In this document: positions 2,326-42,915 of the stretch, one piece after another
How positions within the stretch are numbered: position 1 is the first letter of the stretch
Layout: each line of letters begins with the position of its first letter
Assembly: GCA_016190625.1 (NCBI GenBank)
Contig: JACPQF010000075.1
Span: 1 to 62,537 of the forward strand
Length of the DNA stretch: 62,537 nucleotides
Direction: 5' to 3'
Source of the DNA: Chloroflexota bacterium
GTDB taxonomy: Bacteria > Chloroflexota > Dehalococcoidia > JACPQF01
The notes under the pieces: generated by a model
What the model was told of the DNA's origin: nothing
The model's database searches: none
Seen by the model: the letters and a program-made list of their open reading frames with translations, nothing else
Made by a program: the position numbers and the translations under genes

Positions 2326-2904
2326 TCAACCTGATTCTTCCTTTTCCCGCTTGTCCATGAATTCGAGCACGCTCATAATCGCCGCTAACGACGCGCAATC
2401 GCGGATCAACTCGTTCCGCCCGATCGCCTGTCGCAGTTCGGCCAGATCGACGAATTCTACTTCGATGTTCTCGCTCTCGTCCAGAGACTGTGCTCCCACC
2501 TGCTCGAGGTCGTCGCAGTAGAAGATGTGAGCGCGGGTGGTGAGAAGAGCGGGAGAGGGGTAGAGAACGGCTACCGGCAGGATGCGGCGGGCCCGGAAGC
2601 CGGTCTCCTCCAGTAGCTCCCGCTTTGCCGCCTGGGCCGGCTCTTCCCCTGGCTCGATATAGCCAGCGGGCAGCTCGCAGACCACCTCGCCGATGCCGTG
2701 CTTGTACTGCCGGACCAAGACCACCCGCCCATCGGGGGTGACGGCGAAGACCATGACAAAATCGAAGCGCTCGACCACGTAGTAGTCGTCGATTATCAGA
2801 CCGGAGGCCAGGCGGCAGCGATCCTTTCGTACCCGCAGCCAGCGGTTGGCGAACACCACCTCGGATTCGAGGACTTCCCAATGATCCATAATTGCGCCTC
2901 GCAT
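2326..2904 (-). CDS. NUDIX hydrolase (ADP-ribose pyrophosphatase-like)
   Basis: Nudix box GYIEPGEEPAQAAKRELLEETGF. The start may be ATG 2889 (MDHWEV, GAGG 8 nt upstream) rather than 2904. Confidence 0.9.
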   Translation of the reverse strand: MRGAIMDHWEVLESEVVFANRWLRVRKDRCRLASGLIIDDYYVVERFDFVMVFAVTPDGRVVLVRQYKHGIGEVVCELPAGYIEPGEEPAQAAKRELLEETGFRARRILPVAVLYPSPALLTTRAHIFYCDDLEQVGAQSLDESENIEVEFVDLAELRQAIGRNELIRDCASLAAIMSVLEFMDKREKEESG

Positions 2905-3252
2905 AGTGGTCAGCTATCAGCGATCAGCCGTCAGCGATCAGCTTTCAGCAATCAGCCTTCAGCCTTCAGGTATTAGCCTGCGGACTCATGAAGTTCAAAG
3001 AAAACGTCGGGTGCCGGCGGCCAGGACACGGCGTCAACGAATGGACAGCGAATAAGCGAATGAAGGTGTACTGGCTATTCGCTTATTCGCTGAACATTCG
3101 CTGACGCCGCACCCTCGTATTGTGTTGAGCTTCATTTCTCCGCAGGGCTGCTGACTGCCGATGGCCAATGGCTGACCGCTGATCGCTGATAGTTGACGGC
3201 TGATAGCTGATGGCTGATAGCTGACGGCTGATAGCTGACGGCTGATAGCTAT
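2905..3252. repeat. 348-bp foldback element with heptamer-array arms (TCAGCNN x~8.7 at 2910-2970; GCTGAYR x~14.4 at 3150-3250) around a non-repetitive inverted-repeat core
   Basis: Read directly. Core arms are 2977-2998 vs 3125-3146 and 3030-3062 vs 3075-3108. Fills the whole intergenic gap. Confidence 0.9.
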
Positions 3253-3777
3253 CTAAGTTCTTTGTGCCTTTGTGTTTAAGCCTCCTCGCCGGGCCGTCTC
3301 GAACGCCTCTTTCTCTTCGTCGGACAGCGGATACACGGGCTGGCCTTTCTGAATGGGCTTAGCGTACACCCTCGTGCTGGCGCGGTTGTGTAGCGAGGTT
3401 ATCACCACGCCGTTGTCGTAGTCGTCGAGGAGGGCTACACAGAAGCTCTGGTCGCTTCCCATGTCGGCGAACGGGTTGAAGCGGATGAGGCCGACGTGCT
3501 GGACCGAGCCGCGAACTACCTCGGCGAGACGCAGGAAATCGCGGCCGAGGTCCTCGACCCGCTTGCCCGTTCCCTCGACACGAGTCATGAAGGTCTCGAG
3601 CGCCTTTTCGAGGCTCTGCCCCTCCGAATCTTTGAGCAGCCGCTGGTAGTTCTGCCTCGTCCTCGACAGGCGCTGGTGAATCAAGACCACCTCGACGACG
3701 AGGCCGATCTGAATCAGCAGCATAACTACGCCAAGAACGTAATAAAAGCGGTCGTATAGGGCAATCAACTGGTCCAA
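3253..3777 (-). CDS. DUF4446 family protein (N-terminal TM helix)
   Basis: LIRFNPFADMGSDQSFCVALLDDYDNGVVITSLHNRASTRVYAKPIQKGQPVYPLSDEEKEA resembles the DUF4446 core. Confidence 0.8.
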   Translation of the reverse strand: MDQLIALYDRFYYVLGVVMLLIQIGLVVEVVLIHQRLSRTRQNYQRLLKDSEGQSLEKALETFMTRVEGTGKRVEDLGRDFLRLAEVVRGSVQHVGLIRFNPFADMGSDQSFCVALLDDYDNGVVITSLHNRASTRVYAKPIQKGQPVYPLSDEEKEAFETARRGGLNTKAQRT

Positions 3778-9118: not shown

Positions 9119-9544
9119 ATGATCGATGCCAGAGGTATTCAGGAAATCCTCCCCCATCGCTATCCCTTTCTGTTGGTCGATAGGATCGTCGAGCTAGAGA
9201 GCGGGGCACGGGCGGTAGGGATCAAGAACGTTTCTGCCAACGAGCCCTTCTTTCAGGGCCATTTCCCCGGCCATCCCATAATGCCAGGCGTGCTCATCGT
9301 CGAGGCCCTCGCCCAGGTCGGCGCCGTGGCCATCCTGAGCCTCGAGGCGAACCGGGGAAAGCTGGTGCTGTTCGCTGGCATCGACGGCCTTCGCTTTCGC
9401 AAACCCGTCATCCCGGGAGACACCCTCCGCCTCGAAGTGTCCCTGACCAAGATCAGGGGTCCCGTCGGCAAGGGCGCGGCCAAAGCCACGGTGGATGGCC
9501 AGGTCGCCGCCGAAGGCGAGCTTACCTTCGCCCTCTCGACGTGA
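9119..9544 (+). CDS. fabZ: 3-hydroxyacyl-ACP dehydratase FabZ
   Basis: [13 protein letters not shown] and [23 protein letters not shown]. Confidence 0.95.
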
Positions 9545-9642
9545 GGGTATAGGGCAAAGGGTAGAGGGTAAAGGGTAGAGGGTATTGGGGGGAGGCCCTC
9601 TACCCTCTACCCTCTACCCTCTACCCTCCGCCCTCAACCCTG
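9543..9642. repeat. hairpin element with heptamer-array arms (NAGGGTA x6 / CTACCCT-type x~6)
   Basis: Left arm 9543-9584, loop ttggggggaggcc, right arm about 9596-9642. Begins within the fabZ stop codon. Confidence 0.85.
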
Positions 9643-14138: not shown

Positions 14139-15329
14139 ATGGCGCGGCCGTTGGAAGGCGTCACAATACTGGACCTAACGTGGGCGCTGTCGGGGCCGTT
14201 CGGGACGATGGTGCTGGCCGACCTGGGGGCGGAGGTCATCAAGGTAGAGCGACGGGTCGTCGGCGACCTCGCCCGGAGCACCGGCCCTTTCGTCGGCGGC
14301 GTCAGCACCTACTTCTTTAGCATCAATCGCGGCAAGAAGAGCGTCACGCTCGACTTGAAGACGGACAGGGGAAAGGATGTCTTCCTTGGGCTGGTCGAGC
14401 GCGTCGACGTGCTTACCGAGAACTTCGTCCCGGGAACAATGGCGAGCCTCGGCCTCGACTACGCGGTTCTCCGCCAGCGTAACCCCCGCCTCATCTACGC
14501 CGCCACCTCCGGTTTTGGCCAGACTGGACCATACGCCAACAGGCCGGCCCTCGACATTATCGTCCAGGCCATGTCGGGCCTGATGAGCATCACTGGTGAG
14601 CCGGACAGACCCCCCATGAGAGTTGGCGCCTCCGTTGGCGATACAACGGCCGGCCTGTTCATGGCTATTGGCATTCTCGCCGCTCTCCACGAGCGCAGCA
14701 GAAGCGGCCAGGGACAAATGATCGACGTCAGCATGCTCGACTGCCAGCTCTCGATAATGGAGAACGCCTATGTCAGGTACCTCAACACCGGCGAGATACC
14801 CCGTCGCATTGGCACTCGCCATCCGGTTATCGCGCCTTTTCAGGCCTTTCCCACCAGGGACAACTGGATCGTTATCGCCATGGGAGGCGGAACCAATCGT
14901 TGGGCGCTGTTCTGCGCTGCCATCGACCGGCTGGACCTGATCGACGACGAGCGCTTTCAATCCGGCTACTCTCGCAGTCGGAACGTGTACGAGCTGGAGC
15001 CGATCATCGCCGACGCGCTGAAGAAAAAGACGACGGCCGAGTGGCTCGCCGATTTCGCCTCCATCGGTCTACCCTGTGCCCCCATCAACCGAATCGACCA
15101 GGCAGTCGCAGATCCCCAAATCTCCGCCCGCCAGATGATCGCCGAGGTGCCGGCGGGAAACGGCACAAGCATGCGCCTCGTGAACACTCCAGTCAAGATG
15201 TCCCGCACGCCGTGTACGGTCGAGCAAGGCTCACCGGCCCTAGGCCAACACACCCGCGAGATCATCTCCTCCCTGCTCGGCCTGAGCGAGGAGGAGCTGG
15301 ACGGGCTGGAAAAGGAAGAGGTAATCTAG
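14139..15329 (+). CDS. family III CoA-transferase (CaiB/BaiF family)
   Basis: MARPLEGVTILDLTWALSGPFGTMVLADLGAEVIKVE. The track ORF start at 13707 is an antisense over-extension across the toxin-antitoxin genes. Confidence 0.9.
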   Translation: MARPLEGVTILDLTWALSGPFGTMVLADLGAEVIKVERRVVGDLARSTGPFVGGVSTYFFSINRGKKSVTLDLKTDRGKDVFLGLVERVDVLTENFVPGTMASLGLDYAVLRQRNPRLIYAATSGFGQTGPYANRPALDIIVQAMSGLMSITGEPDRPPMRVGASVGDTTAGLFMAIGILAALHERSRSGQGQMIDVSMLDCQLSIMENAYVRYLNTGEIPRRIGTRHPVIAPFQAFPTRDNWIVIAMGGGTNRWALFCAAIDRLDLIDDERFQSGYSRSRNVYELEPIIADALKKKTTAEWLADFASIGLPCAPINRIDQAVADPQISARQMIAEVPAGNGTSMRLVNTPVKMSRTPCTVEQGSPALGQHTREIISSLLGLSEEELDGLEKEEVI

Positions 15330-15330
15330 T

Positions 15331-15553
15331 AGCTGTCAGCTATCAGCCTACAGAATAGCCCACGAATCCTATGAAGATTAACAAATAAAGCGGATATTTG
15401 CCCGTAGGGGCGATGTCCTTCGGCTGAAGGATGCTCGCCCCCGTCCCCCACCTTGGCCGCCACGGAGGGTCGGCCACTGCGACGAACACTCGGTTGTGTT
15501 GTCAACGTTCATTCGTCCGCAGGCTGACGGCTGACGGCTGACGGCTGACGGCT
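15331..15553. repeat. second copy of the heptamer-armed foldback family (TCAGCNN x~2 at 15336-15349; GCTGACG x~4.4 at 15523-15553) with a nested REP palindrome (15404-15442)
   Basis: Core ends ..ATAGCC..CG.A.TC.TATGAAG.. and CTCGGTTGTGTTG..TTCATT..TCCGCAGG match the 2905-3252 element. Fills the whole gap. Confidence 0.85.
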
Positions 15554-15572
15554 AATGGGGTATAATGCAAGG

Positions 15573-29746: not shown

Positions 29747-29804
29747 CTATCGCTCACAGACAGTCGTGTGGTCGGTCAAGGGCATGTTGTCCTATCGGAT
29801 GACG

Positions 29805-29842
29805 GCAGTATAGCCTGCTCTTACGGTTACGTCAAGGTTAGA
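29805..29842 (-). promoter_or_regulatory. conserved 38-nt promoter/operator block, copy A (TTGACG-17-TATACT)
   Basis: -35 at 29830-29835 and -10 at 29807-29812 (minus strand). 37 of 38 positions are identical in all three copies (copy B has C for T at one site). Confidence 0.7.
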
Positions 29843-29999
29843 GACAAGAACATCAACGGTCAGGCTGACTGGCGTCTCATTGGTGTTTCCAGACAGAGCC
29901 CATGTCATGATGTACCCAATCTATGAATGGCCTCCGTCCCCGGTAGACTGATCGGCTGGCTATTCCACGTAATCTGACATGGACGCCAATGGCTGATCC

Positions 30000-31436
30000 C
30001 TAATCGCGGGCCGGCGGCCCCGCCGCTCGCCGGCGCTCCCTCCGCGCCGCCACGTAGCGCTCGTGAGCAGAATCTGGAATGAGTAAAGCCAACGGCACGG
30101 CGAGCAAGCCAAGCAAGGCAAGTGCCAAGATTATCGTTTGCATGCCAGATGCCTGCTGTTCCCCAAATCGACTGGCTGCCAGTACAATCGCGGCTGTTCC
30201 GAGCAGGGCGCCCGTAGTCCGGAACGTGCCACGCAGCCCCACCGCAGCCGCTAGCTTTCCCGGCACCAGGTCCAGCGACGCGTTGTTAGAAGGTGGCGCC
30301 TGAATTCCATGTCCAAATCCTGCCATCATAACCATGGACGATAAGAGCACGAGGTTTGGCACTTGCAAGCCTAATAGCGATAGGTCGTGAAAACCCCGAC
30401 TGACCATGAGCATGCTCACCGAGTTGAGGACAAAGCCTAAAACCATCGGCATTCGATAGCCCCAACGCATCAGAAAGACGCTGCTAACGATCGAGGCAAT
30501 GGCCATGGCCGCGGAACGTGGCGCCAGGACCGCGCCGCTCTCGCCGGCGCTCATCCCGTAGACAACCGCCGCATAATAGGGAATAAAGGAAGAGACAGTA
30601 GACAGCACCAACCCGTATAGGAAATTGTAGAGGTTGGCCGCCACAAGTGAGCGACTGGTAAGCAGCTCAAGCTCGATCACCGGCGACGGAGTTCGCCCCT
30701 CATGCCAGAGAAATATGCCCAAAGCCACCGCGCCGGCGACGACGAGCAGCCAGGTGAGCGGATTTTCAATAGATTGCACGTCGTTTCCCCACGCCGTCAT
30801 CGCCGACAATATGGCCACCATGGAGCCGGAGAACAAGCCAACGCCGATCAAGTCAAGCCCCTTGCCTTGGCTGAGGGATTTGCTCGGCGGAATGAATGCC
30901 AAGCCCACGAGGTATAACGCCGCTCCGATAGGTGCGCTACCGTAGAACATCCACCGCCAGGAGAAGTGGTCGATAACGACTCCTCCGACGGTGGGGCCGA
31001 GTACACCACCCAAGGGAAAAATGCTGGTGAAGAGGCCAATGGCGGTCGCTCGCCGTTCGCCAAAGGCGTCGCTCACTATGCTCGTGGCCGATGGCAACTG
31101 GGCGCCTGCAGCGACTGCCTGCAAAATGCGCGCAAAGATGAGCACGTAGACATTCGGGGCAAATCCGGCGAGAATCGTGCTCGCGGTGAACACGATCATG
31201 GATACCGAGAATACCCGGCGGGCGCCCCAATCATCGCTCAGCTTTCCAGCCAGTGGCATGACAATACTTTGGCCCAGTTGGTAGCCCGTGAGGGTCCAGC
31301 CAACCCAGGTTAGACTAGTATCCAAATCCGCCAGCATCTTCGGAAGGGCAACCGCCACAATGGTGGCACTAACGGAAGTGATTGTCAAGCCAGCAGATAC
31401 GATGCCGAAAACAATATAAGAGCGCAGAGACGTCAT
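30000..31436 (-). CDS. MFS transporter, DHA2-like, paralog 2
   Basis: Homologous along its full length to paralogs 1 and 3. Start taken at MTSLRSY, 22 nt after the paralog 3 stop. The track start at 31556 is over-extended. Confidence 0.9.
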   Translation of the reverse strand: MTSLRSYIVFGIVSAGLTITSVSATIVAVALPKMLADLDTSLTWVGWTLTGYQLGQSIVMPLAGKLSDDWGARRVFSVSMIVFTASTILAGFAPNVYVLIFARILQAVAAGAQLPSATSIVSDAFGERRATAIGLFTSIFPLGGVLGPTVGGVVIDHFSWRWMFYGSAPIGAALYLVGLAFIPPSKSLSQGKGLDLIGVGLFSGSMVAILSAMTAWGNDVQSIENPLTWLLVVAGAVALGIFLWHEGRTPSPVIELELLTSRSLVAANLYNFLYGLVLSTVSSFIPYYAAVVYGMSAGESGAVLAPRSAAMAIASIVSSVFLMRWGYRMPMVLGFVLNSVSMLMVSRGFHDLSLLGLQVPNLVLLSSMVMMAGFGHGIQAPPSNNASLDLVPGKLAAAVGLRGTFRTTGALLGTAAIVLAASRFGEQQASGMQTIILALALLGLLAVPLALLIPDSAHERYVAARRERRRAAGPPARD

Positions 31437-36500: not shown

Positions 36501-38522
36501 CTATCTAGCGTGTACCTTGCTTACGGCGAACTCACGCCCCTCATTGTGGCAGACTTTGCAGCTCTCAGCGCCGTCCACAGTCTGAGCAGCGGCATGAGTC
36601 TTGGCCGGCCCACTGTCGTGGCAGCCTGTACAGGCAGCCGTGATCGGCGGTATCGAGGTGACGACCTTATCGCCAACTTTCACCGTCGTCGGAATGACAC
36701 CCCGAGCGAAGTTCAGCAACTGGGAGCCGGGCACGTGGCACTTCTCGCAGTTCCGTCGGTCGCCTGGGAAGCGCACCTCAGACAGATCGATCGGTCGGAC
36801 GTTGCTTGCGCCTCCGCCATAGATGACGAGCTTATCGTTCTGCTCCTCGCCGGTGTGGATCTTGTGGATCAACCGCTTGAAGTCGATAGGCTCGGGTGGC
36901 AGCGGGCCGCCAACGGATGCTCTCTTGACAGCGTCGCTGTTGTTGGGATTGTGGCAGAGCACGCAGAACTCCGTGTTGACGCGGCTACCGCCGTGCAGCG
37001 CCAGCTTCTCGTGGCAGACGTTGCAGTTATTGACGTCGACGATCTGTTTGCGCGACTGAGCTACAGTGCCGGTCACGGCGGCGTACGCAACCTTGTTGAA
37101 CCCAACGTTCCGAGCTGCAACTGTATTGCCTGCCCAATCCTTGAGATTCTGATTCAAGATGCCCTGAACACCTGCCGCATACGTGCCTGTGGCGTCAGCG
37201 GGTATCTTTGCCGTGAAGGTGTAGCTGTAGTTGCCGTCACCAGTCGCCGTGGCGCCGGTGGCCGTCTCTGCTACGGGAATGGTAGCATAGTCGGTGGTCG
37301 GCCCGGAAAGGACGAAAGATAGGCTGGACATCTCCGATGGTTTGATGGGCTGGCCGGCGTTGTCCTTGATATTGAACACAACCGTCGGCGACTGGCCGGG
37401 CTTCGCCGTCAAGTTCACGATCTCGAAGTTGACTCCCCTCAGTTGTTTCGACCGGTCGGGAATCGTGTGAGCTCCGGTCACCGATAGGTCAAACTCCTGG
37501 CCGTCCGCCGGGTGGCAGGTTTTGCAAGCCGTATTGGGCTGTGCGCCACCGCCATGATTGGCGCCTGTCTGGAAGTTGACATTGTCGTGGCAGGCCCCAC
37601 AGGCCTCGGCGCTGGGTTGAGTCTTCCATACATCGCCCTGCTTTCCTTTATGGCAGGTCGTGCAATTGCGGGTATCCTGCGGAAAGACGATGTCGCTGAA
37701 ATTGTGATTCTCGCCGCCGATAAAGTAGGCCTTGCCTGCCTTCACGCTGGGAAGATTCGCTCCGCTATGGATTTTGTGGACGAGAACACGGAATTCCACG
37801 GAGTTTCCGCTTTGCGGGTCGACGTTTTGCCCGGTGTGGCAGGTTACACAGTAATCAGTTTCCCGACGCGTCGTTCCGTGAACGGCCAGCGGATCGTGGC
37901 ATTGATTACAGGCCGCTGTCGTGACAACCTCCCGCTGGGCTTTCGTTCCGCCTGACGGAACAAAATCGAAGGTAGCATTGCTAACGGCTGCCCGATTGTC
38001 TCGCGTGACCTGGCTACCGATGCGATACGTGGCCGCCGGGTCGAATCCGGCTGGCACGGCAGCCTTGAACGCGTACTGAAACGAGCCGCCGCCCTGGTCG
38101 GTAAACGTTCCGCCGCTATCGGCGCCAGGCTGAGTCGCGGTGTCGAGAGCGGGCTTGCGAGTCTCGCCCTTGAACACGAAATCCCTTCCCTGAACCTGAT
38201 TCACGACGAAGTTTTCCCAAAAGGTGCGCCCGGTACCTGTCTCCTGCTTGAGCACGGCAATGTCGAACCGCAGGCTGTTGGCGTCGACATCGGTCAGGCG
38301 AAGCGGGCTTCCCTTGGCGTCGGTCAGCTTGAACGACACCACGGGCTTGCGGTCGCCGGGAATGGACGCGCTGGTGATAGCCAGCTTCACGCCACCTGTA
38401 GCCGGCGTAGATTCACCATTCACGACCGAGTTGGAATGAACAAGCTGATACACAACCATGAACAGGGACAATGTTACGATTGAGCCGACGATTGTCAGAA
38501 TCGTTCTGACGCGATGGTGCAT
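36501..38522 (-). CDS. membrane-anchored decaheme c-type cytochrome (MtrC/OmcA-like four-domain architecture)
   Basis: Ten CxxCH motifs arranged 5 + 5 around beta-rich segments, with an N-terminal TM helix. RBS AGGAGGGAGA. Start taken at MHHRVRT, so the track start at 38684 is over-extended. Confidence 0.9.
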   Translation of the reverse strand: MHHRVRTILTIVGSIVTLSLFMVVYQLVHSNSVVNGESTPATGGVKLAITSASIPGDRKPVVSFKLTDAKGSPLRLTDVDANSLRFDIAVLKQETGTGRTFWENFVVNQVQGRDFVFKGETRKPALDTATQPGADSGGTFTDQGGGSFQYAFKAAVPAGFDPAATYRIGSQVTRDNRAAVSNATFDFVPSGGTKAQREVVTTAACNQCHDPLAVHGTTRRETDYCVTCHTGQNVDPQSGNSVEFRVLVHKIHSGANLPSVKAGKAYFIGGENHNFSDIVFPQDTRNCTTCHKGKQGDVWKTQPSAEACGACHDNVNFQTGANHGGGAQPNTACKTCHPADGQEFDLSVTGAHTIPDRSKQLRGVNFEIVNLTAKPGQSPTVVFNIKDNAGQPIKPSEMSSLSFVLSGPTTDYATIPVAETATGATATGDGNYSYTFTAKIPADATGTYAAGVQGILNQNLKDWAGNTVAARNVGFNKVAYAAVTGTVAQSRKQIVDVNNCNVCHEKLALHGGSRVNTEFCVLCHNPNNSDAVKRASVGGPLPPEPIDFKRLIHKIHTGEEQNDKLVIYGGGASNVRPIDLSEVRFPGDRRNCEKCHVPGSQLLNFARGVIPTTVKVGDKVVTSIPPITAACTGCHDSGPAKTHAAAQTVDGAESCKVCHNEGREFAVSKVHAR

Positions 38523-38989
38523 TCTTCTCTCCCTCCTACAGATTACGGTGCAGGCTACGTAATCTCGGTTCTCATTATCGTTGCTACGTGATAACCGATG
38601 GCCCGGACTTCTGACCTGACCTTCCGACCTTTGCCTGCCTTCCACCACGCAGTAGAAGTCCCCGATTCTCCTATTCCATCGCAATCACCCCCCTTTCCCA
38701 CCAGGTCGGTCGCCAGCAGGCCATTAGCTGCCTTGACAGGCAAAAGAAGAAAGCCCATGGCTGGGCACGTGAGCCGCCAAGCCATAGGCGTTCATCATTG
38801 CCTACAGTCGGGATGCCAACGTCAACATCCACTGGTTCGACCTTATGCTAGTGCGATTGAGTTATAGCATACACACGAACCAAATACAACGGGTTGCCGG
38901 TCTAATTGTAAAGTAATTCACGAATCGATATCGGCAGAAAAGGGCCTGTTTGGCTATCAATCGTATCCTTTCGCCATCGCACTGTCCTG

Positions 38990-40535: not shown

Positions 40536-40925
40536 TCATGGGGCAGCGAACTTCCGCTTCAAACTTGAGCCGCCCCGGCTCTCATGGATACTCCGATCTA
40601 GGACCTCTCTGACGTTGGCCCGGAGTGCCGGTAGCTTGTTGACAACCACATCCCACACGATGTCAAAGTCAACGCCAAAGTAGCCATGAATGAGACGATC
40701 GCGCATTCCTGCCGTGGCGCGCCATTCGATGGCAGGATACTTCTGGCGGAAGGAAGGAGGGATCTGCTTAACCGCTTCGCCAATAATCTCAATGCTGCGT
40801 ACCCAGGCGCGCTTAAGGGTCTCATCCTCCAAGAATGTTGCCATTTCGAGTCCTTTGGCGCTCCTTAAGAGAAAGTCCGCCTCGTCCATAATATGCTGGA
40901 GGTATTCACGCACCGACAGGGGCAT
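40536..40925 (-). CDS. hepT: HepT-like (DUF86) ribonuclease toxin
   Basis: Rx4HxY motif RDRLIHGY. Overlaps the upstream MntA gene. Confidence 0.85.
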   Translation of the reverse strand: MPLSVREYLQHIMDEADFLLRSAKGLEMATFLEDETLKRAWVRSIEIIGEAVKQIPPSFRQKYPAIEWRATAGMRDRLIHGYFGVDFDIVWDVVVNKLPALRANVREVLDRSIHESRGGSSLKRKFAAP

Positions 40926-41217
40926 ACTCAACCTCGCGTAGGATATACGGGCCGATGTACGGACTCAACGACTCAGTTGTGATGAGATCGACTGGCCGTC
41001 CAAACAAATCTTCGAGGTAGAAGGCAATCTGCATAAAGTGGTCAAATGTCTTCTGACCCGGCTCGAAGTCGACGAGGATATCAACGTCACTCTGATCCCT
41101 CGAAACATTCCGCACGAACGAGCCAAAGAGACCGCAGCGCCGCACGCCCAGTCGCCGCAGCTCCGCATGGTGCTTCTGCAAAAGAGCCAGGATTTCTTCT
41201 TTGTTTTGAACTGTCAT
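40906..41217 (-). CDS. mntA: MntA-type nucleotidyltransferase antitoxin
   Basis: LFGSFVRNVSRDQSDVDILVDF (GSx10DxD). Confidence 0.85.
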   Translation of the reverse strand: MTVQNKEEILALLQKHHAELRRLGVRRCGLFGSFVRNVSRDQSDVDILVDFEPGQKTFDHFMQIAFYLEDLFGRPVDLITTESLSPYIGPYILREVEYAPVGA

Positions 41218-41973: not shown

Positions 41974-41992
41974 GCTGATAGCTGACCTCTAC

Positions 41993-42337: not shown

Positions 42338-42915
42338 TGAAATTGATGAGACCTTTGACCTCGCGCGGCGACAGTTTCAGATCATTCTGTCGAGCATCTG
42401 GCGAAAGGCCACCATCACCTGTTCCTCGACCCTCATTTCCGAACAGAATTTCTTATACTCGGTCATCCGCCGGCAACGGCGAATACTCTTCTGTTTCACT
42501 TGGGAACCCGCCAGTTGCCCTCCTTCAGAACTATCATCGATTGCTCCTTTCCCGCCCAAGCGGTTCATGGCAAGGGTGATCCTCAGATCTATTATACAGG
42601 ATATTAAGATACGAGTAGAACGGGAACCAGCCCACCATCGGCCAACCCTGGGACAGGCCAACCCTGGGATGTTGATACTTTCGCCTGTTGCCCGTATACT
42701 GGAAGTAAGGTGACAGTAGACTTCACAAACTACCAGCTCGGACCCCAGCCAGATAGTCTTTTCGAGCTTCCGCCGGGGACCAAGGTCATCGACCTTCCGT
42801 CGAACCTGCTGGGCATGCCTGGCAGCATGCCGACGCCAGGGCGCTAGAGGCTCACCAGGTCGCTGAGATTTGCGTCGTGCAAGGAATAAGAGAACAGTAG
42901 AAGGAGGATCCCGAT

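Follow-up and report, generated by a model that had tools for sequence, protein, structure and literature searches.

Among the long simple-sequence repeats of most prokaryotic genomes, heptamers are reported to be the most frequent (Mrazek 2007, as cited in PMC4679880). The closest described system to the one considered here is formed by the GGGAATC repeats of Xanthomonas, where tandem heptamers are arranged in convergent inverted pairs in gaps separating aligned open reading frames (ORFs), with 70–75 pairs per genome; these pairs are mostly transcribed, and their unit number varies between strains (Rehm et al. 2015, PMC4692102). Here we describe a foldback element of 343 bases at positions 2910–3252 of contig JACPQF010000075.1 of a Chloroflexota bacterium (62,537 nucleotides, the whole stretch analysed, hereafter the window). 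The element is non-coding and fills the intergenic gap between a DUF4446 gene and a NUDIX gene, and its arms of tandem TCAGCNN and GCTGANN units enclose a core with inverted terminal repeats. With moderate confidence, we regard it as a slippage-prone heptamer microsatellite hairpin that carries a palindromic insert similar to a MITE (miniature inverted-repeat transposable element), is co-transcribed with its neighbours and is tolerated as an intercistronic stem, as which it may also function.

Three of the features that characterize the Xanthomonas inverted pairs were found at this locus, namely tandem heptamers above chance, a convergent reverse-complement array nearby and a non-coding position between same-strand genes. 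In both cases two convergent arrays of 7-nt units are able to form a stem-loop or cruciform, and hairpins of the wider TCAGCNN/GCTGANN class, to which the arms belong, mostly occupy, as in Xanthomonas, gaps between aligned ORFs near stop and start codons. However, the Xanthomonas unit is G-rich and forms G-quadruplexes, which TCAGCNN cannot do; no nested core with terminal repeats has been described and no polarity rule reported for these pairs, and they belong to a different phylum.

The TCAGC units share a CTGA core with the TAACTGA direct repeats of Beggiatoaceae, Cyanobacteria and Bacteroidetes (MacGregor 2015, PMC4679880) and with the MTYCTGA x5 sites of Geobacter metallireducens (PMC2700814); TAGCTGA, frequent in the window arms, is one substitution from TAACTGA. 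Only one inverted TAACTGA example was reported in the BOGUAY genome (PMC4679880). Like the TCAGC class, these repeats are mostly intergenic, patchy in their phylogenetic spread and placed in forward orientation just upstream of start codons, with stops in three frames. They differ in being direct, AT-rich arrays of 2–6 units with neither a hairpin partner nor a core.

Tandem heptanucleotides reportedly also occur in the non-coding DNA of heterocystous cyanobacteria as short tandemly repeated repetitive (STRR) sequences, with several unit types per genome (Mazel et al. 1990). The window too has several heptamer types (TCAGCNN, AGGGTAN and ACCCTCT), and the likeness to STRR repeats drawn in an earlier note on this DNA holds as an analogy. 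As a link it fails, since the closest RecA relatives (identity 89% and lower) are metagenome-assembled genomes (MAGs) of Dehalococcoidia/Chloroflexota, not heterocystous cyanobacteria; the best DUF4446 relatives likewise come from such MAGs. Moreover, STRR units (CCCCAGT, TTGGTCA, CAACAGT) differ from the TCAGCNN/GCTGAYN units of the element, belong to another phylum, and inverted pairing is not part of their definition.

Correia/NEMIS elements of Neisseria and enterobacterial repetitive intergenic consensus (ERIC) sequences are non-coding, intergenic and co-transcribed, are shorter than 500 bp and have terminal inverted repeats of ~20–26 nt and long hairpins; those of Correia/NEMIS serve as substrates of RNase III and alter the stability of mRNA. 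With MITEs the element shares terminal repeats (22 nt, 82%; four alignable ends), small size and non-coding character, and it differs from them in having no target-site duplication, in the conservation of only the ends between its two copies and in ends that grade into heptamer arrays. Repetitive extragenic palindromic (REP) sequences and bacterial interspersed mosaic elements (BIMEs) resemble what is seen in the window in being small extragenic palindromes of several families, nested in gaps and after stop codons, with fast turnover between relatives. The arms of the element, in contrast, are microsatellites and not single palindromes, and they hold no conserved REP-type hairpin unit.

Heptamer arrays combined with MITE-like architecture, as the earlier note put it, is a fair description. 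Its statement that no family with this structure is known was too strong, as inverted heptamer pairs are known in Xanthomonas (PMC4692102) and CTGA-core arrays have been described (PMC4679880). What appears to be new here is the combination of such inverted arrays with a MITE-like core, together with the polarity and spacer rules of the TCAGC class. In the part of the literature searched, neither the TCAGCNN hairpin class nor its polarity nor a nested core was found described in open-access papers, and full texts containing the literal repeat were unrelated and mostly biomedical.

The window is a complete metagenomic contig carrying ordinary chromosomal genes. Both genes flanking the element are on the minus strand, DUF4446 (3253–3777, Pfam E = 1.7e-41) upstream and NUDIX downstream. 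The foldback is rod-like and consists of three nested layers (Table 1). Tandem Repeats Finder gave period-7/14/21 arrays at 2910–2969 and 3170/3178–3250; by eye, the right array begins at 3150 with degenerate core-side units (GCTGACT, GCCGATG, GCCAATG) and runs to 3252. These readings agree with the numbers of heptamer units, about 8.7 and 14.4, counted in the earlier note. The outer part of the right arm (3213–3250) is composed of 2.7 perfect copies of the 14-mer GCTGATAGCTGACG. The two-unit motif GCTGAYNGCTGAY, at one mismatch or fewer, has 25 matches in the window against 1.5 expected, and 0/100 shuffles reached 25. Complementarity between the arms is 77–84% over 51–75 nt, and a baseline of ~80% is given by the fixed 5/7 bases alone; therefore, the NN positions contribute almost nothing. 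The two inverted repeats nested between the arms are both present, with coordinates shifted by 1–2 nt from those first proposed for the inner one, which has 33-nt arms.

Table 1. Positions of the two element copies, their components, adjoining gene signals and related palindromes in the window
Feature	Position	Strand	Description
Probable true NUDIX start codon, ATG	2887–2889	-	Aligned with the start of the orthologue in the closest relative, L131 (MNDWEV vs MDHWEV)
NUDIX Shine-Dalgarno sequence, GAGG	2897–2900	-	Read from sequence; GAGG also conserved in L131
Left arm	2910–2976		~9 TCAGCNN units (+ strand), decaying into TCAGGTA and TTAGCCT; in the minus-strand sense transcript, 3' arm (GCUGANN)n
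Core left terminal inverted repeat, CCTGCGGACTCATGAAGTTCAA	2977–2998		22 nt, 82%; pairs with 3125–3146
Left connector	2999–3028		Partial pairing with 3110–3124 (GGGUG/CACCC) in folds
Unique inner hairpin	3029–3109		33-nt arms 3029–3061 / 3077–3109, 91%; apical loop 3062–3076
Core right terminal inverted repeat, TTGAGCTTCATTTCTCCGCAGG	3125–3146		22 nt, 82%; pairs with 2977–2998
Right arm	3150–3252		~14.4 GCTGAYN units (+ strand); in the sense transcript, 5' arm (UCAGCNN)n
DUF4446 stop codon (TAG)	3253–3255	-	Directly abuts the last partial heptamer unit (sequence)
Remnant half of older palindrome (AAACACAAAGGCAC)	3264–3277	-	Now read as the last DUF4446 codons; the whole palindrome occupies this site in L131 and follows a different gene in L255
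AGGGTAN foldback	9543–9641		(AGGGTAN)x6 then (CCCTCTA)x6.6, 6-nt loop; begins at the TGA of a FabA-like gene
Second element copy	15330–15557		Same polarity as the first, same terminal motif, different interior
Copy 2, left mini-array	15330–15353		Short TCAGC array
Copy 2, degenerate left 22-nt repeat	15359–15382		
Copy 2, nested REP-like hairpin	about 15407–15441		
Copy 2, right 22-nt repeat	15502–15523		
Copy 2, right array	15523–15557		(GCTGACG)x4.6

The position of the element between two same-strand genes, as first described, stands, with a correction to the NUDIX start. The last partial unit touches the DUF4446 stop codon, and the alignment with the orthologue suggests that NUDIX begins at the ATG given in Table 1 and not at 2902–2904. 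The arm therefore stops 20 nt upstream of this start codon and leaves the ribosome-binding site free; this site and the DUF4446 stop codon are both intact beside the element. The element is not coding: TGA stops occur in every frame of the GCTGA arm, and the two copies have no conserved small ORF in common.

Folding of both strands gave a genuine foldback. Either strand folds as one rod over the whole region, with -192.1 kcal/mol (z = -13.7) for the minus-strand RNA, -203.8 kcal/mol (z = -12.3) for the plus-strand RNA and -106.6 kcal/mol (z = -11.7) for DNA. In the sense transcript, the 3' arm is followed by CCACUAUGCGAGG with no U-tract, so the element is not a classical Rho-independent terminator; the only terminator-like match is antisense, at 3230–3253. 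The search of Rfam gave no match at the gathering score in the whole window and none at E <= 1 on either element. A period of 7 without spacers confirmed that this is not a CRISPR array.

The second copy is flanked by a CoA-transferase gene, which ends at 15329, and by a small ORF whose match to the B-box zinc finger is weak and below threshold. The four ends of the two copies align to TCAGCC..CCTGCGGA-N3-ATGAAG-N-T-N-AAC, and their interiors are unrelated. With up to 3 mismatches, this end motif has 3 matches in the window against 0.12 expected, each abutting a heptamer array. The same ends in the second copy therefore suggest that the core spread, or was copied, inside this genome. According to the earlier note, a foldback with no other copies and no conserved core would be a one-off slippage artefact; both another copy and conserved core ends were found.

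Each 22-nt terminal repeat contains an inward-facing GGA(G)-like motif and then ATGAAG or ATGAAC (2984–2993, 3130–3139, 15366–15375 and 15510–15519), which resembles a small translation start. A conserved peptide in the core was ruled out, the ORFs behind the ATGAAG of the terminal repeats being unrelated and 5–44 codons long. The inner hairpin has no other copy in the window or the fetched loci, and BLAST of the cores of both copies against all fetched loci gave no match. Wider scans did not reveal the core. Three matches of the core pattern in GTDB genomes were all chance ones inside coding regions, and two scans of IMG/VR for the core or the terminal repeat gave only chance matches. A metagenome pattern of TCCGCAG with two heptamers was too loose and, among the matches listed, mostly found coding chance matches of the "LIAD" type; the few metagenome hairpins whose loop contains CTGCGGA owe their selection to the search pattern itself and are no evidence for the core.

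The closest relative, a groundwater contig (L131), has the same DUF4446-NUDIX pair with a DUF4446 protein 75% identical to that of the window. Its gap of 66 nt holds a small palindrome (CTAAACACTAAGGCACAAAGGC / GCCATAGTGCCTTTGTGTTTAG) that is flanked by A-rich sequence on its 5' side and by U-rich sequence on its 3' side and contains no heptamers. The element proposed for comparison across orthologous gaps is thus absent from this relative and is therefore a recent replacement; the window keeps only the 5' half of the L131-type palindrome, and the heptamer element takes the place of the rest. In a syntenic 10.9-kb contig of another relative (L255, RecA 89%) no heptamer arrays were found. Downstream of the FabA-like gene, this contig has a foldback bounded by the AAACACAAAGGCAC motif, and the window has there the AGGGTAN/CCCTCTA hairpin (-90.6 kcal/mol, z = -7.4), which is not present in the orthologous L255 gap. 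By these comparisons, the heptamer foldbacks arose recently and, at two sites, took the place of an older family of palindromes. This family, AAACACWAAGKCAC, stands directly after stop codons in the two relatives (L131 976–1028; L255 5759–5956), and its flanks, rich in A and in U, are like those of a bidirectional terminator; the half retained in the window extends the DUF4446 frame by a few codons.

The class of the arms was studied in IMG/VR, where (GCTGAYN)x4 was found in at least 120 stretches, mostly, among the matches listed, on contigs of 55–70% GC. These arrays pair as short-loop hairpins with a median of 4 units per arm and a 20-nt loop, and the arms are unequal in 28 of 62 hairpins. 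Their gene context was obtained with a crude gene caller based on GC content at third codon positions (GC3). Between same-strand genes lie 174 of the 223 intergenic arrays (~78%), and the distance from a stop codon to the following arm has a median of 9 nt, that from an arm to the next start codon a median of 19 nt; for lone arrays, position relative to genes is uninformative, as the caller absorbs TCAGC arrays into ORFs. A further 69 arrays fall within called ORFs and in essentially every case have TCAGC on the sense strand, since TGA occurs in each of the three frames of GCTGA. None of the 103 IMG/VR hairpin loops examined has TGCGGA at a loop end, which makes the core a component of its own, specific to this lineage.

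In the explanation that we favour, the outer arms would be heptamer microsatellite arrays of this widespread class, in the order 5'-(TCAGCNN)n ... (GCTGANN)n-3', probably growing and shrinking independently by replication slippage. Ongoing slippage, suggested in the earlier note from the unequal arms, is plausible in view of the perfect 14-mer copies in the right arm, of 4 versus 7 units at homologous phage loci of the related IMG/VR contigs L063 and L099 and of the unequal arms in 28 of 62 hairpins, from which we infer it. The core would be a MITE-like unit of ~170 nt bounded by 22-nt inverted repeats (CCTGCGGA-N3-ATGAAG-N-T-N-AA), with an interior free to vary and able to hold other small palindromes; at its centre would stand the unique 33-bp hairpin. 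Between these two genes, relatives have a small A-tract/stem/U-tract palindrome, most of which the element would have replaced. The DUF4446-NUDIX mRNA would contain it, folded as an imperfect rod of ~170 bp whose base would bring the upstream stop codon beside the downstream ribosome-binding site and start codon. An insert of 343 nt is probably tolerated because the base of the rod sets the stop codon next to the ribosome-binding site, at a place where a hairpin already stood. The element is probably transcribed within this mRNA, as suggested by the shared strand of the two genes, by a ribosome-binding site left intact and by the gap of 66 nt in the relative. By analogy with Correia/NEMIS, its likeliest effect, if any, may be that of an intercistronic stem-loop serving as a 3' exonuclease barrier or as a target of a double-strand RNase.

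Several points weigh against this explanation. No target-site duplication is visible at the repeats of either copy, and the terminal repeats blend into degenerate heptamer units; the core junctions read TTAGCC/TGCGGA, CAGCCC/TGCGGA, TCAGCC/TGCGGA and ATAGCC/CACGAA, with heptamer units only and no direct duplication. No transposase was found among the window genes scanned (62 kb), and we know of no insertion sequence with matching ends and no partner transposase. The core copies examined are two, both within the 62-kb window and alike only at their ends, and both substantial TCAGC arrays of the window (>=3 units in an arm) carry the core. The core may have been inserted into existing hairpins, or else the arrays may be amplified termini of the element. 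Co-transcription and an RNA role are our inference. Finally, the strict polarity and the kept spacer mismatches of the class point to a sequence-specific mechanism or function for which the favoured explanation does not account.

Hairpins of the class (loci L008-L127 and L278-L331) hold to one polarity almost without exception: exact scans across the whole of IMG/VR gave 76 stretches, with 102 distinct hairpins, in the order TCAGC...GCTGA, and only 2 in the mirror order. Both arm orders give the same helices, and both window elements follow the TCAGC...GCTGA order. Complementarity of the NN spacers within hairpins was 0.367 versus 0.461 +/- 0.026 with arms swapped between hairpins, and 0/500 swaps were as low. 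The stems are therefore 5-bp helices parted by kept 2x2 mismatches, and the claim that the arms can pair stands in a narrower form: the arms are complementary, only their 5-nt cores pair, and the spacers are less complementary than chance across the class. Neither rule is expected from hairpin stability alone, which points to a sequence-reading factor or to a directional origin mechanism.

Both rules would suit a selected cis-acting RNA signal at gene boundaries (processing, stability or pausing), where the heptamer is read by a factor and mobility is secondary. We consider such a signal possible, if rather unlikely. It is also supported by arms that abut stop and start codons, by the hairpin of unrelated sequence at the same position in the relative and by a contig with the head and packaging genes of a tailed phage (portal, capsid, protease and terminase; IMGVR_UViG_3300045933_000102, L108), in which 15 of 23 gaps carry arrays. 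On the other hand, the orthologous sites of relatives lack heptamers, only 3/64 gaps of the window carry the unit, and there is no Rfam match, no covariation to test and no candidate binding protein. Contigs related to L108 (IMGVR_UViG_3300045936_000120) have tandem heptamer units in 10/15 (L044), 8/20 (L041) and 7/12 (L020) gaps. In these contigs, the GCTGA arm often lies directly at the ATG, and an obvious Shine-Dalgarno sequence is lacking. A host for L108 was not found through its capsid protein, the best isolate-phage matches of which have <40% identity.

A broader proposal, tentative and in our opinion unlikely, is that TCAGCNN/GCTGANN hairpins are a distinct and as yet undescribed gene-boundary element of GC-rich uncultured bacteria and their phages, read by a specific machine, and that the core in the window is a small mobile element specialised for hairpin loops. 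The fixed polarity and the mismatched 2-nt spacers suggest that this machine may be RNA polymerase in pausing, an RNase or a repeat-binding protein.

It is improbable that the arrays act as protein-binding or promoter elements at the DNA level, with GCTGAC/TTGACG units as -35-like or regulator sites facing the downstream gene. Copy 2 has a sigma-70-like CTGACG-17 nt-TATAAT at 15538–15566, upstream of the small B-box-like ORF, in which a heptamer unit supplies the -35 box; this resemblance, however, covers 4/6 bases at one site only, and no promoter-like site was found at the first element. In other phyla, CTGA-core heptamer arrays precede start codons (PMC4679880); in Geobacter, arrays of this type have been proposed to be sites for global regulators (PMC2700814); and in Nostoc, reporter expression changed when heptamer repeats were deleted (bioRxiv 10.1101/2022.06.06.494920). 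On the other hand, half of all arms point into the 3' end of an upstream gene.

An independent small RNA gene or structured non-coding RNA outside the mRNA is very improbable. The structure is indeed very stable, and for copy 2 the better fold is that of the strand antisense to the neighbouring genes, where the end stem, in its 8-bp CCCACGAA/TCCGCAGG part, has G-U pairs in place of the three C-A mismatches (checked by hand). Nevertheless, Rfam gave no match, no promoter/terminator pair was found around the first element, and the interior is not conserved between the copies. A one-off product of local slippage or duplication, or an assembly artefact with no family behind it, is scarcely credible and already largely refuted. 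In its favour are the origin of the window as one metagenomic contig, the lack of another copy of the inner hairpin and exact core scans that gave only chance matches elsewhere. Against it, a second copy with conserved ends lies 12 kb away, fold-back chimeras would not show such imperfect arms, neither neighbouring gene is damaged and both keep their synteny with relatives, the array lengths of 61 and 103 nt fall below those of typical reads, and the arm class is abundant in independent samples. The feature is real and no artefact.

The window contains other repeats. In the AGGGTAN foldback, the stop-containing arm comes first, the reverse of the logic of the TCAGC class; a general rule that the stop-rich arm must face the start codon was rejected because of this opposite order. 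Its G3N4 arm could form a G-quadruplex, like the GGGNATC repeats of PMC4692102. A REP-like hairpin, GGGCG..TCCTTC-N4-GAAGGA..CGCCC, was found at 1406, 1450, 2090, 15416 and 17526 (5 vs 0.18 expected). The hairpin at 15416 is nested in copy 2, and that at 2090 lies in frame within the DUF3786 gene, where the linker of the L131 orthologue is shorter. As the hairpin inside copy 2 recurs elsewhere, these gaps are mosaics of nested independent palindromes. Between the convergent histidine-kinase and DUF3786 genes there are a palindrome of two REP-like units with 35-nt arms (1400–1471) and then a lone (ACCCTCT)x4.7 array (1549–1581). A two-unit GCTGATAGCTGAC at 41974–41986, right before the ATG in a 19-nt gap of two minus-strand genes, may be a minimal array or a chance match. 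Genes for an MtrC/MtrF-like multihaem cytochrome and a HepT-like RNase toxin were listed in this order at 36501–38684 and 40536–40931. Two regions, 29747–30633 (887 nt) and 42338–42915 (578 nt), are gene-free in crude gene calls and have no Rfam match.

The interest of these data rests mainly on the class-wide polarity (102 vs 2) and on the avoidance of spacer complementarity, both of which are testable. The array-rich contig with tailed-phage genes offers an experimental route if a cultivable host-phage pair with such arrays is found. At this locus, a heptamer hairpin appears in three roles at once: as a microsatellite, as the host of a nested palindromic element and as the replacement for a small terminator-like palindrome.

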